A stretch of DNA of 4,220 nucleotides from a virus. Taxonomy: Duplodnaviria > Heunggongvirae > Uroviricota > Caudoviricetes. The translations under genes were made by a program, and so were the position numbers. The stretch lies in IMG/VR virus record IMGVR_UViG_2585427731_000006; one strand, given 5' to 3'. This document shows, piece by piece, positions 1 through 4,220 of this stretch; position 1 is the first letter of the stretch; the number at the start of each line of letters is the position of its first letter. The notes beneath the pieces are model-generated. The model saw nothing but the letters and a program-made list of their open reading frames with translations, made no database searches and was not told the DNA's origin.

Positions 1-456
1 AAATGGCCCGAAATTCAGGCAGAGATGCGCATCTGGAAAAAACGTCGCGAAGGTGAACGCAAGGAAACCGGAAAATACACGTCTGTTGTTGATCTCGCCC
101 GCGCCAGAGCCAATCAACAGCACACTGAAAATTCAACAGGAAAAATCAACCCGGTCATTGCTGCCATTCATCGCGAATACAAGCAGACATGGAAAACACT
201 GGATGACGAACTGGCCTACGCTCTCTGGCCTGGTGATGTGGATGCCGGAAACATTGACGGCAGCATCCATCGCTGGGCAAAAAAAGAAGTTATCGACAAC
301 GACCGCGAAGACTGGAAGCGTATCTCGGCATCAATGCGCAAACAGCCTGATGCCCTTCGCTACGACCGCCAAACTATTTTTGGCCTTGTCCGTGAACGTC
401 CGATCGACATTCACAAAGACCCCGTAGCACTGAACAAATACATTACGAATACCTGA
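1..456 (+). CDS. hypothetical prophage protein, 5'-partial (frame open to the window edge)
   Basis: Frame 1 is open from nt 1 to TGA 454-456; the ORF track starts at the first ATG (25) but there is no upstream stop, so the gene probably begins outside the window. Composition is protein-like (mixed charged/hydrophobic, e.g. ...IHRWAKKEVIDNDREDWKRI...), whereas the overlapping ORF 53..427 is S/T/L-rich and looks like an alternate-frame artefact. I recognise no family motif. Confidence 0.5.
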   Translation, partial: KWPEIQAEMRIWKKRREGERKETGKYTSVVDLARARANQQHTENSTGKINPVIAAIHREYKQTWKTLDDELAYALWPGDVDAGNIDGSIHRWAKKEVIDNDREDWKRISASMRKQPDALRYDRQTIFGLVRERPIDIHKDPVALNKYITNT

Positions 457-538
457 CGACAAAGGGCGTGTTTGAGATGAAGAAACAAACCAGAGCACAA
501 CTGATACTCTCCAGTCATCAGAAACACAAACTGATGCA

Positions 539-823
539 GTGGAAACTGAGGTATCTGATATCCCAAAAAATGAAACCGCGCCGGAAGCTGAACCATCTGT
601 AGAGCGTGAGGGGCCGTTCTATTTCCTCTTCGCAGATAAGGACGGAGAAAAATACGGTCGCGCAAACAAACTTTCTGGTCTGGATAAGGCACTGGCTGCT
701 GGCGCCACTGAAATCACAAAAGAAGAATATTTCGCCCGAAAAAACGGCACATACACAGGCTCACAACAAAATACAGATACAGCTGAAGACCGAACAACCA
801 GAGCCAATAAAAGTTACCGCTGA
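539..823 (+). CDS. hypothetical acidic protein; start codon uncertain
   Basis: Frame 2 is open from 476 to TGA 821-823 and encodes a protein-like sequence (...[49 protein letters not shown]...). The only in-frame start is GTG at 539, with no obvious Shine-Dalgarno. An ATG at 477 with an upstream AAGGG sits in a different frame (frame 0, 41 codons). Net charge is mildly acidic. Confidence 0.3.
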
Positions 824-839
824 CGAAGTAAACAAAATT

Positions 840-1151
840 ATGCAGGCAGCCAATATCAGCCAGCCTGACGCCGATAAGTTGCTTGCTGCATCACGTGGTG
901 AATTTGTTGAAGGGATTAGTGACCCGAATGATCCGAAATGGGTTAAGGGGATCCAGACCCGCGATTCTGCGAACCAGAACCAGCAAGAAACGGAACAGAA
1001 CGACCAGAAAGCGGAACAAAACAGCCCAAATACGCAACAAAACGAGCCAGAAACGAAACAACCTGAACCAGTAGCGCAACAGGAACCGGAAAAGACTGCA
1101 CCGCCTGCGGTCAGACCGGCGGCGGCAACTGCCCTGATTGTGGCGCGGTGA
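840..1151 (+). CDS. hypothetical protein with a Q/E/N/P-rich low-complexity C-terminal tail
   Basis: Frame 0 ORF ending at TGA 1149-1151. The ORF track extends it to GTG 606, but the 606-800 stretch in this frame is W/basic-rich and overlaps the better-looking frame-2 ORF, so I place the start at ATG 840 (weak GAAG 11 nt upstream). Product: [25 protein letters not shown]...[41 protein letters not shown].... The stop overlaps the next start (TGATG, 1149-1153). Confidence 0.35.
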
Positions 1152-1918
1152 TGGGCGACGCAACATACCAAGAAACATTCGATGAAGAGAATCAGCCTGA
1201 AGTTCAGGAAGATGATCCGGAGGAAATGGAAGGCGCTGAACATCCACACAAGGAGAACACTGGCGGCAATCAGCATCACAATAGCGATAATGAAACTGGC
1301 GAGACGGCAGATCACCCAATTAAGGTGAACGGTCATCACGAAATCACATCCACCAGCAGGACGTGTGACCATCTAATGATCGACCTTGAAACCATGGGAA
1401 AAAATCCTGATGCCCCGATCATCTCAATAGGTGCAATATTTTTCGATCCGCAAACCGGAGATATGGGACCGGAATTTAGTAAGACTATCGATCTGGAAAC
1501 TGCTGGCGGAGTCATTGATCGGGACACCATTAAATGGTGGCTTAAGCAATCACGCGAAGCGCAATCTGCCATTATGACCGATGAAATCCCGTTAGATGAT
1601 GCACTGTTACAATTGCGGGAATTTATCGACGAAAACTCCGGTGAATTTTTTGTTCAGGTTTGGGGAAATGGAGCCAACTTCGACAACACGATTTTGCGCC
1701 GTTCATACGAACGGCAGGGGATCCCCTGCCCGTGGCGTTACTACAACGATCGCGATGTACGCACAATCGTTGAGCTGGGGAAAGCCATAGACTTCGATGC
1801 CAGAACGGCTATTCCATTCGAAGGTGAGCGCCATAATGCACTTGATGACGCCCGTTACCAGGCAAAATACGTTTCAGTTATCTGGCAAAAACTGATCCCG
1901 AGTCAGGCTGATTCTTAA
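1151..1918 (+). CDS. DEDDh-family (DnaQ-like) 3'-5' exonuclease with an acidic, His-rich N-terminal extension
   Basis: The three exonuclease motifs are present in the expected order: Exo [11 protein letters not shown] (D-x-E), Exo [15 protein letters not shown], Exo [13 protein letters not shown] (H...D). The catalytic domain is roughly 1373..1918; the first ~75 residues are acidic, low-complexity and His-rich ([34 protein letters not shown]). The ORF track starts at GTG 1148; ATG 1151 is more likely and overlaps the upstream stop, suggesting translational coupling. Confidence 0.8.
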
Positions 1919-1929
1919 TGTTCAACTGT

Positions 1930-1961
1930 CGCCGGTTGTGACTGGTATTCTGCAACCGGCG
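1930..1961. promoter_or_regulatory. perfect 9-bp inverted repeat (CGCCGGTTG / CAACCGGCG) with a 14-nt spacer, between the exonuclease gene and xis
   Basis: Read directly: 1930-1938 CGCCGGTTG and 1953-1961 CAACCGGCG are exact reverse complements. No U-tract follows, so it is not a canonical intrinsic terminator; it could be a protein-binding palindrome or an RNA stem-loop. Confidence 0.35.
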
Positions 1962-1990
1962 CTCGTCTGATGTAAGAGATAAAGAAATCG

Positions 1991-2242
1991 ATGAGCGAAG
2001 TAATCATGATTGTCTCTCCCGGCAAATGGGTATCCGAAGAGCAGTTAATTGCGCTGAAAGGAATAAAAAAAGGTACGTTAAAAAAGGCCCGGGAAAAATC
2101 GTTTATGGAAGGAAGGGAATATAAGCATGTCGCTCATGACGGTATGCCATGGGATAACAGTCCATGCTTTTACAACCTGGAAGAAATTGATCGCTGGATT
2201 GAGCGCCAGGCATCAGCGAGACCAAGACGTCATCTTACTTGA
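1991..2242 (+). CDS. xis: excisionase-like recombination directionality factor (putative Xis)
   Basis: An 83-aa basic protein encoded immediately upstream of, and co-oriented with, the integrase (20-bp gap), which is the canonical xis-int arrangement of lambdoid phages. The call rests on position and size rather than on a motif I can name with certainty. Confidence 0.55.
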   Translation: MSEVIMIVSPGKWVSEEQLIALKGIKKGTLKKAREKSFMEGREYKHVAHDGMPWDNSPCFYNLEEIDRWIERQASARPRRHLT

Positions 2243-2261
2243 CTAAAAGCCACACTAACTA

Positions 2262-3365
2262 ATGAGAGAAGTTGAAATGAAATATCCGACAGGCGTGGAA
2301 AACCATGGAGGGAAATTACGTATCTGGTTTGTTTATAAAGGCGTAAGAGTCAGGGAAAATCTGGGGGTTCCTGACACAGCAAAAAACAGGCGCGTTGCAG
2401 GTGAACTACGCTCCTCTGTTTGTTACGCAATAAAAACTGGTGTTTTCGACTATGCAAAACAGTTTCCCTCCTCACGCAATCTGGAAAAATTTGGTGAGGC
2501 CCGACAAGATTTAACCATAAAAGAACTGGCTGAAAAATTTCTGGCACTGAAAGAAACTGAAGTCGCCAAAACATCACTCAACACATACCGTGCCGTCATC
2601 AAAAATATCCTGAGCATAATCGGTGAAAAAAATCTTGCCTCATCGATTAATAAAGAAAAATTACTGGAGGTTCGTAAAGAGCTACTGACTGGATACCAGA
2701 TCCCCAAAAGTAACTATATTGTTACACAACCAGGGAGATCGGCTGTAACTGTAAATAATTACATGACAAATCTTAACGCCGTGTTCCAGTTTGGTGTTGA
2801 TAACGGTTACCTGGCAGATAATCCGTTTAAGGGGATCTCGCCATTAAAGGAATCAAGAACCATTCCGGATCCTCTTTCGCGGGAGGAATTTATCCGTCTT
2901 ATCGATGCGTGCAGAAATCAGCAAGCAAAAAATTTATGGTGTGTTTCTGTTTATACTGGCGTTCGCCCTGGTGAGCTGTGTGCACTTGGATGGGAGGACA
3001 TAGATCTGAAAAATGGAACAATGATGATCAGGAGAAATTTAGCAAAAGACCGTTTCACGGTACCAAAAACACAGGCGGGAACCAATCGGGTCATTCATCT
3101 TATTAAGCCAGCAATCGACGCTCTCCGGAGTCAGATGACATTAACGAGACTGAGCAAAGAGCATATCATTGATGTTCACCTCAGAGAGTATGGCAGAACA
3201 GAAAAACAAAAATGCACCTTTGTTTTTCAACCTGAAGTGTCAGCGAGAGTAAACAATTATGGTGACCATTTTACCGTTGACTCAATAAGGCAGATGTGGG
3301 ACGCAGCGATAAAACGTGCCGGACTCCGCCATCGAAAATCATATCAGTCGAGACATACTTATTGA
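2262..3365 (+). CDS. int: phage integrase (tyrosine recombinase), C-terminally truncated by IS3 insertion; likely non-functional
   Basis: N-terminus resembles the lambdoid arm-binding domain (KYPTGVENHGGKLRIWFVYKGVRVRENLG). The catalytic-domain box I Arg is present (YTGVRPGELCALGWEDIDLKNG). The ORF ends ...HRKSYQSRHTY and its TGA stop (3363-3365) is supplied by the first bases of the IS3 terminus, so the expected downstream His and the nucleophilic Tyr are missing. The start may be ATG 2277 (MKYPTGVE) rather than 2262. Confidence 0.85.
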   Translation: MREVEMKYPTGVENHGGKLRIWFVYKGVRVRENLGVPDTAKNRRVAGELRSSVCYAIKTGVFDYAKQFPSSRNLEKFGEARQDLTIKELAEKFLALKETEVAKTSLNTYRAVIKNILSIIGEKNLASSINKEKLLEVRKELLTGYQIPKSNYIVTQPGRSAVTVNNYMTNLNAVFQFGVDNGYLADNPFKGISPLKESRTIPDPLSREEFIRLIDACRNQQAKNLWCVSVYTGVRPGELCALGWEDIDLKNGTMMIRRNLAKDRFTVPKTQAGTNRVIHLIKPAIDALRSQMTLTRLSKEHIIDVHLREYGRTEKQKCTFVFQPEVSARVNNYGDHFTVDSIRQMWDAAIKRAGLRHRKSYQSRHTY

Positions 3366-3402
3366 TCTTACCCAGCAATAGTGGACACGCGGCTAAGTGA
3401 GT
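3363..3402. repeat. IS3 left terminal inverted repeat (IRL), about 40 bp
   Basis: The IS end begins with 5'-TG at 3363, directly abutting the integrase reading frame. The exact IR length was not verified because the right end is outside the window. Confidence 0.6.
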
Positions 3403-3427
3403 AAACTCTCAGTCAGAGGTGACTCAC

Positions 3428-3723
3428 ATGACAAAAACAGTATCAACCAGTAAAAAACCCCGTAAACAGCATTCGCCTGAATTTCGCAGTGAAGCCCTGA
3501 AGCTTGCTGAACGCATCGGTGTTACTGCCGCAGCCCGTGAACTCAGCCTGTATGAATCACAGCTCTACAACTGGCGCAGTAAACAGCAAAATCAGCAGAC
3601 GTCTTCTGAACGTGAACTGGAGATGTCTACCGAGATTGCACGTCTCAAACGCCAGCTGGCAGAACGGGATGAAGAGCTGGCTATCCTCCAAAAGGCCGCG
3701 ACATACTTCGCGAAGCGCCTGAA

Positions 3724-3727
<4 letters not shown>
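3428..3727 (+). CDS. insE: IS3 OrfA (InsE), transposase N-terminal DNA-binding subunit
   Basis: ATG 3428 with GAGGTG 6 nt upstream; the 99-aa product [57 protein letters not shown]...KRLK has helix-turn-helix and leucine-zipper character. The ORF track's GTG 3419 start is probably 3 codons too long. Confidence 0.9.
3690..3694 (+). other. IS3 programmed -1 ribosomal frameshift motif A-AAA-G (orfA to orfB)
   Basis: The orfA 0-frame codon AAG is at 3692-3694 and the -1 frame codon AAA at 3691-3693; the -1 frame is the orfB frame (3724 is in the same frame as 3691). This is consistent with the known IS3-family OrfAB transframe mechanism. Confidence 0.55.

Positions 3728-4220
<493 letters not shown>

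Follow-up and report, generated by a model that had tools for sequence, protein, structure and literature searches.

A DEDDh exonuclease reading frame in an Escherichia coli prophage contig is not an independent gene and very probably represents the end of a broken 823-aa YdfE-type gene

We find that the 255-aa open reading frame (ORF) at positions 1151-1918 of the window (the whole 4,220-bp stretch of DNA that was analysed) is not an independent gene, and that this holds whether the breaks lying upstream of it are artefactual or real. Positions 1-1918 very probably constitute the C-terminal part (640 codons) of a single 823-aa prophage gene, the frame of which was broken most likely by assembly errors and, failing that, by decay into a pseudogene. 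The window is the complete contig JORI01000057.1 of the draft assembly GCA_000713105.1 (E. coli 6-537-08_S1_C1), and the product of ORF 1148/1151-1918 is deposited as KEM44311.1. The gene itself is already known, and what remains of modest interest is its parent family, together with the exchange of nuclease heads within it. The layout of the window is summarized in Table 1. The preliminary description of this DNA had placed the exonuclease next to xis-int, and it does lie directly before them, as the excisionase gene begins 72 nt after the exonuclease ORF and is followed by the integrase gene. The 3' edge of the window is a contig end that falls inside IS3, and a search for repeats in the window returned nothing relevant.

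Table 1. Features of the 4,220-bp window, with coordinates, strand and basis of assignment.
Feature	Position	Strand	Basis
YdfE/Qin-type 823-aa prophage exonuclease gene, very probably codons 184-823	1..1918	+	Alignment to intact alleles; four frames as assembled
Short ORFs in shifting frames	25-456, 477-602/539-823, 840-1151	+	ORF list
Exonuclease ORF	GTG 1148 / ATG 1151 to stop 1916-1918	+	ORF list
Frameshift 1, 1 base missing versus all intact alleles	443..445	+	Alignments; absent from JORI01000100
Frameshift 2, 1 base missing	475..477	+	Alignments; absent from JORI01000100
Frameshift 3, 2 bases missing	785..791	+	Alignments; absent from sister-isolate contig JOSC01000124
Frameshift 4, 1 base missing	1093..1096	+	Alignments; absent from JORI01000093 and the sister isolate
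Zinc ribbon CTAC-x7-CPDC, in the exonuclease frame, 5' of any start codon	1097..1144	+	Sequence reading; RecE keeps CNACGQTGGDNCPDC
Acidic His-rich linker, predicted to be disordered, homologous to RecE ~536-592	1151..1372	+	Composition, pLDDT, NF007259, BLASTP
DEDDh 3'-5' exonuclease domain	1373..1918	+	Exo I DLET, Exo II, Exo III HNALDDA
Excisionase (DUF1233)	1991..2242	+	PF06806, E 1.6e-31; annotated excisionase in relatives
Tyrosine integrase (intQ-type), C-terminal end lost to IS3 insertion	2277..3362	+	PF12167 and PF00589 (Arm-DNA-bind_2, Phage_integrase)
IS3, left part: orfA 3428-3727, orfB start from 3724	3363..4220	+	Relatives' 'IS3-like element IS3 family transposase'; Pfam HTH_Tnp_1, HTH_21

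A megablast search against phage genomes revealed four phages with full-length matches to window 1-3362 (96-98.5% identity), these matches spanning 3367 bases as compared with the 3362 of the window. In HannyBb and mEp460, the equivalent of window 1-1918 is located inside a single 2472-nt coding sequence (CDS) that specifies 823 aa and is annotated as 'exonuclease'; the HannyBb CDS (L001 2452-4923) shows 98.5% DNA identity over the whole of 1-1918, mEp460 and ETEC 504239 are similar, and the intact 2472-nt CDS is present in APEC 102026 and E24377A as well. Aligned to these alleles, the first base of the window is the first base of codon 184, the earlier codons having been cut off by the contig end. 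Moreover, both pairwise and multiple alignments show that window 1-1918 lacks five bases at four sites, namely 1, 1, 2, and 1 nt at ~443, ~476, ~789, and ~1093, respectively. Since each gap shifts the frame and a stop codon follows soon after, the window displays a succession of small ORFs, and no single uninterrupted reading frame passes through the four frame-shifting gaps of this contig. The two acidic ORFs upstream of the exonuclease are therefore earlier pieces of the same protein read in other frames; they do belong with the exonuclease, as had been suggested, but as parts of one 823-aa gene and not as separate partner genes. It is the base missing at frameshift 4 (~1093-1095) that alone parts the exonuclease ORF from the upstream coding sequence, as seen against every intact relative examined. 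The exonuclease frame is open back to position 1067 with no start codon there, and it encodes, just upstream of the ORF as had been anticipated, a CxxC-x7-CxxC zinc ribbon, while ATG 1151 corresponds to an internal Met of the intact protein. On the phrog_2082 profile ('exonuclease', 823 positions), the ORF matches positions 569-822 and an intact relative positions 1-822.

The origin of the breaks was approached by comparing the window with further contigs from its own assembly and from a sister isolate, which had come to light through exact look-ups of the small ORFs. JORI01000093, a contig of the same assembly that carries a PPompW-type prophage beside ompW, ends exactly at the first base of the window and is 100% identical to window 1-1094, frameshifts 1-3 included; it possesses the base missing at 1095 and then diverges. 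JORI01000100, also of this assembly, comprises the Qin prophage's left arm together with the 5' part of the gene; it is free of frameshifts 1 and 2, contains additional indels, and shows 100% identity to window 495-1210, where frameshifts 3 and 4 are shared. The Qin copy is represented by two mutually contradictory contigs in one assembly. In JOSC01000124, from the sister isolate S1_C2 with the same xis-int-IS3 arrangement, window 1-517 is reproduced identically with frameshifts 1 and 2, and frameshifts 3 and 4 are absent; this contig differs from the window at 50 positions in 1-1930 as opposed to 2 positions in 1931-4220. The complete genome of ETEC 504239, in which the gene is intact, shows one mismatch in 1931-4220. 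Given that the unique part (1931-4220) is clean across the comparisons, all irregularities fall within the multi-copy part of the contig. At each gap, Qin-like bases give way to PPompW/mEp460-like ones or the reverse, in places from one base to the next. The deletions occurred in none of the 30 best matches among 5426 complete E. coli genomes, where the best identity over 380-1200 reached 95.5%, and an exact search for the frameshift-4 junction in contigs of one genome per species gave no match.

We thus consider it likely that the breaks are consensus errors, which arose when Qin-type and PPompW-type prophage paralogs were collapsed in a short-read draft assembly; this reading is drawn from the contig inconsistencies and presumes two or three paralogous copies as well as clonal isolates. 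Two points count against it: simple path switching in a de Bruijn graph does not, by itself, yield deletions of 1-2 nt, and PPompW_EH1846 is a natural allele whose annotated frameshift stems from another deletion, one of 4 nt. That allele was also considered as the origin of frameshifts 1-3 and was rejected, as its deletion aligns to window 842-845 and coincides with none of the gaps of the window. It is rather unlikely, though by no means far-fetched, that the four frameshifts are real and mark a pseudogene in decay within a cryptic Qin-like prophage, having spread between the paralogous copies by gene conversion. The prophage is defective, with IS3 residing in int, the K-12 ydfE gene is cut by IS2 and PPompW_EH1846 provides another frameshifted allele, and the blocks identical between contigs could be products of gene conversion; the C-terminal fragment might then arise by termination-reinitiation at the UGAUG overlap (1149-1153), where the stop codon of ORF 840-1151 overlaps ATG 1151 (TGATG). 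However, overlapping contigs of one assembly do not carry the same frameshifts, nor do the sister isolates, even though these are nearly identical in the unique part, and near the indels the allele type changes from one base to the next. Moreover, the gene is intact in ETEC genomes that share exactly this IS3 insertion, and a promoter scan of 1-2300 revealed no promoter-like site and reading of the sequence no Shine-Dalgarno sequence ahead of 1151 or 840. Programmed ribosomal frameshifting that restores the full protein from the broken frames is, in our opinion, practically ruled out: although site 4 lies in GGAAAAG, four shifts differing in sign and size would be needed, one of them across a 2-nt gap, none of the sites is at a canonical slippery heptamer, the intact relatives are all encoded in a single frame, and the deletions are unique to this assembly. 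Collapse of paralogs in the assembly is hence the reading that we prefer, and it carries a caution, since short draft contigs over multi-copy prophage genes can contain consensus indels, which split one long gene into several small 'novel' ORFs with odd termini.

Within these limits, ORF 1151-1918 carries a domain of the DEDDh (DnaQ-like) 3'-5' exonuclease superfamily, belonging to the PF16473/DexA clade. The Pfam model PF16473 (Rv2179c-like) matches the ORF with an E value of 2.6e-68 and 229.7 bits (cutoff 27) over profile positions 2-177 of 177, which bears out the assignment made in the preliminary description. The catalytic motifs were likewise confirmed in their places, with Exo I (DLET) at 1382-1393, Exo II (GNGANFDN) at 1664-1687, and Exo III (HNALDDA) at 1832-1852, and D78/E80, D178, and H228/D233 (counted from ATG 1151) align with D7/E9/D119/H186/D191 of T4 DexA. 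The domain is preceded by 74 residues with 20 D/E, 3 K/R, and 8 His (pI 4.4). In an AlphaFold2 model of the ORF (67 sequences), these residues have a pLDDT of ~44-63 and are predicted to be disordered, and the domain has a pLDDT above 90. The modelled domain matches the folds of RNase T, DexA, and the epsilon subunit, T4 DexA being the closest solved fold.

The acidic and His-rich composition of this stretch, pointed out earlier, as well as its predicted disorder, are thus upheld, but its standing as an N-terminus is not. In a BLASTP comparison with Rac RecE, residues 262-627 of the intact protein aligned with RecE 278-592 (E 1e-61), and within this region the zinc ribbon and the acidic/His stretch are nearly identical to RecE ~520-592. 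The NCBIfam model of RecE, NF007259, matches only positions 271-600, with 282.7 bits as against an equivalog cutoff of 1269, and the first 56 residues of ORF 1151-1918 match its positions 545-600 (E 2.4e-17); the homology ends at the start of the RecE nuclease region. Judging from these alignments, the acidic/His stretch is an internal interdomain linker or tether of the RecE type. The view of a minimal exonuclease with an atypical N-terminal extension is at odds with the intact 823-aa gene found in phages as well as many E. coli genomes, and that of an uncharacterised module with the outcome of the profile searches, which place the gene in PHROG 2082, and with the finding that the extension is shared almost throughout with a recombination exonuclease, RecE (528-592); this largely amounts to the outcome that the preliminary description had named as refuting its view.

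The likeness to RecE (Rac exonuclease VIII, 866 aa) comprises the homologous middle region and the place in the early-left operon before xis-int. The two proteins differ at both ends: RecE terminates in a PD-(D/E)XK 5'-3' nuclease, whereas the YdfE-type protein terminates in a DEDDh 3'-5' exonuclease, and the first 260 residues of the latter (YdfE_N) are unrelated to those of RecE (PF06630). In line with this, Pfam gave no DUF3799/PD-(D/E)XK match in the window protein, its C-terminus being PF16473. Neither in the window nor in the intact relatives is a RecT annealase gene adjacent, as xis follows directly. According to a review, the nuclease domain of RecE occupies residues 564-866, the N-terminal part of the protein has no known function, and full-length RecE boosts linear-linear recombination (PMC11611040).

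A search of representatives clustered at 50% identity returned 11,778 clusters, which fall into three groups. Many are standalone DEDDh proteins of ~180 aa. The second group consists of long proteins that join a RecE-type N-terminus (PF06630) to a DEDDh domain, as in P0123, where xis-like and int genes follow directly, and the third of long proteins with a YdfE-type N-terminus and a PD-(D/E)XK domain (DUF3799), as in P0141, where an overlapping RecT gene follows. The YdfE-type scaffold is thus also found fused to a RecE-type PD-(D/E)XK domain with RecT next to it, and RecT accompanies the PD-(D/E)XK head only. From these groups it follows that two N-terminal modules and two heads of opposite polarity combine at a common joint formed by the zinc ribbon and linker, so that a RecE-like middle part is joined either to PD-(D/E)XK with RecT or to DEDDh without it. 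Such an exchange of heads could help to explain the role of the N-terminal two-thirds of RecE, and the interest at the level of the family is independent of the broken copy in the window.

Since the catalytic pentad and the fold are those of DEDDh enzymes, the intact protein would be a Mg2+-dependent 3'-5' DNA exonuclease, tethered by a flexible linker to a RecE-like scaffold, and, once the prophage is induced, it would process DNA 3' ends during recombination or replication of the phage. We infer such a role from its fusion to the RecE scaffold, from the place of its gene in the early-left operon, and from the location of gp34 of Salmonella phage epsilon34, the nearest standalone homologue (56% identity), which is encoded between erf/ssb and abc2; the occurrence of the YdfE-type scaffold with a RecE-type PD-(D/E)XK domain and RecT likewise points to recombination. 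The intact protein is, then, probably a nuclease that processes DNA 3' ends and belongs to the early-left/recombination operon of the prophage. Against a part in recombination counts the observation that no annealase gene lies beside the DEDDh versions examined. Epsilon34 gp34 and other phage 'Rv2179c-like' exonucleases are, unlike the YdfE-type protein, standalone (~180 aa) and not fused to a RecE-like scaffold. Rv2179c of M. tuberculosis (PDB 4HEC) is standalone as well, and an exoribonuclease according to the Pfam family name. T4 DexA (PDB 8KEL/8KEN), a 3'-5' exodeoxyribonuclease with 28% identity, is a standalone protein of 227 aa with extra loops. Its residues W152 and D169, proposed to recognize 5hmC, align to Tyr and Ala here, the D169 region being a loop in which the alignment is uncertain; its tetramer-forming D90 is kept as Asp, and its S87 is replaced by Pro. 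EcD/'HREX' (HAK9828821.1) belongs to the same domain family, and its primer-derived start, MIDTET, resembles MIDLET here, but it consists of this domain alone and has Ala at the position of DexA D90, where the YdfE-type protein has Asp (PMC12153337).

The preliminary description had envisaged a standalone accessory DEDDh exonuclease with an acidic/His extension that forms a defence or anti-defence module with the two acidic ORFs in the xis-int slot. The intact DEDDh domain, the adjoining xis-int, and the report that EcD, a standalone E. coli homologue of DexA, protects against T4 (PMC12153337) are consistent with such a module, which we nevertheless regard as very improbable, considering that the three ORFs line up in order along a single gene and that the extension is the RecE-type linker described above. 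Moreover, PADLOC returned only a generic Cas-associated DEDDh model (E 1.8e-5 to 1.9e-6) along with a sub-threshold 'Effector' match, and the gene is a conserved early-operon gene and not variable cargo, region 380-1200, which is partly shared with recE, being matched in 4721 of the 5426 complete E. coli genomes at a median of two places per genome. We give a small chance, though a greater one than that of the module, to the possibility that the intact 823-aa protein is a prophage defence nuclease of the HREX/EcD kind, which degrades incoming phage DNA (e.g., DNA containing hydroxymethylcytosine) from its 3' ends. This would fit with T4 DexA as the closest solved relative, with the lack of an annealase partner, and with the bacterial DexA homologues reported as anti-T4 exonucleases (PMC12153337). 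On the other hand, the identity to DexA is low, the residues that align to W152 and (with the uncertainty noted) D169 match poorly, and D90, lost in the dimer-only EcD type, is kept; furthermore, the gene lies in a repressed early-lytic operon, is fused to a RecE scaffold, and has its nearest standalone homologue in a recombination module. When EcD primer sequences were compared with viral contigs, one search gave no match and the other gave five chance matches without the forward primer. Returning to 3'-end processing in the early-left operon as the more probable function, we would only tentatively, and with little confidence, go further and propose that the intact parent represents an unstudied class of prophage nucleases present in most E. 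coli genomes, in which a RecE-type scaffold (zinc ribbon and acidic linker) bears nuclease heads that are of opposite polarity and can be exchanged for one another. The DEDDh version would then act without an annealase, for instance as a recombination factor that does not require RecT, or as an induced nuclease, related to DexA/EcD, that serves defence or exclusion by degrading 3' ends.

The parent gene belongs to a very abundant and already annotated family and is among the commonest prophage genes of E. coli. At E <= 1e-5, the family comprises more than 7999 clusters (90% identity), one of which has 23,183 members. Its members include HannyBb XNS40216.1 and E. coli WP_000048316.1 (823 aa, PHROG 2082), and precomputed Pfam matches on the relatives list YdfE_N (PF27430), YdfE_C (PF27432), and PF16473. 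A literature search found no functional study of YdfE, only incidental mentions. The K-12 pseudogene ydfE of the Qin prophage corresponds, at 100% identity, to residues 1-256 of the intact protein and is then interrupted by an IS2 insertion. A full-length AlphaFold2 model (mean pLDDT 75.7, pTM 0.39) is folded at 1-205, 240-345, 385-435, and 641-820 and disordered at 346-384 and ~436-640, with the zinc ribbon appearing in the latter region at modest confidence. The parent is laid out as folded YdfE_N/YdfE_C, a long disordered Q/E-rich stretch, the zinc ribbon, the acidic/His linker, and the DEDDh domain. The window copy has the same neighbours as the YdfE/Qin gene (dicB-ydfD upstream, on contig JORI01000100, then xis and int) and differs from it in starting at codon 184, in having five bases fewer at four sites, and in having no full ORF. 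In ETEC 504239, the intact gene occupies the Qin slot dicA-ydfA-dicB-ydfD-[exonuclease]-xis-int-rspB, where int is interrupted by the same IS3 as in the window and its remainder resumes beyond the element.

Both ends of the contig are repeat boundaries. Its first base, in codon 184 of the exonuclease gene, is the exact start shared by three contigs from two assemblies, and its other end falls within IS3. The orfB frame of this element carries a TGA at a position where the contig of the sister isolate S1_C2 has TGG (Trp); either the transposase is prematurely terminated here, or this codon is a further consensus error in a multi-copy element. An identical IS3 insertion in the Qin-type integrase is common to several complete genomes, including those of strains 504239, 67-1, TW11681 and WS1933D, and suggests that the source strain lies within or near their lineage.

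The copy of the exonuclease gene in the finished genome of phage PPompW_EH1846 is annotated as a pseudogene. We found that this copy carries a 4-nt deletion, and true decay of the gene therefore happens too. The ATG of the ORF under study shares bases with the stop codon that ends the frameshifted ORF upstream (TGATG), a chance arrangement resembling translational coupling.

Module shuffling was also observed in the RecE-like family, whose members have YdfE_N or PF06630 as the N-terminal module and a DEDDh or a PD-(D/E)XK domain as the C-terminal nuclease, with a common zinc-ribbon/acidic-linker region as the joint between them; RecT lies downstream of the PD-(D/E)XK versions only. Additionally, gp34 of Salmonella phage epsilon34 is a standalone DEDDh homologue (56% identical), flanked by erf-like/ssb genes on one side and by abc2 on the other, a slot that in P22 is presumably filled by abc1.

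Shortly 3' of the exonuclease stop codon and 5' of xis lies a GC-rich hairpin, and the 81-nt region containing it has a folding energy of -23.8 kcal/mol (z = -2.6). No T run follows the hairpin, which may serve in the processing or retroregulation of the early-left RNA.

Coordinates of the features in the window and in the compared loci (L numbers)
Feature	Window	Compared loci
Shared contig start	1	L016 and L017 (contig ends)
4-nt deletion in PPompW_EH1846	842-845 (equivalent position)	
TGATG overlap	1149-1153	
Hairpin, GCCGGTTG-N14-CAACCGGC core	1930-1961	
IS3 insertion in integrase	3363	L003 9433-10823
TGA in orfB frame	4117-4119	
Contig end within IS3	4220	
PPompW_EH1846 pseudogene		L020 652-3119
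RecE-like module shuffling		L014 768-4354; L015 4001-7705; L001 (phage HannyBb) 2452-6562
epsilon34 gp34		L021 2269-4349
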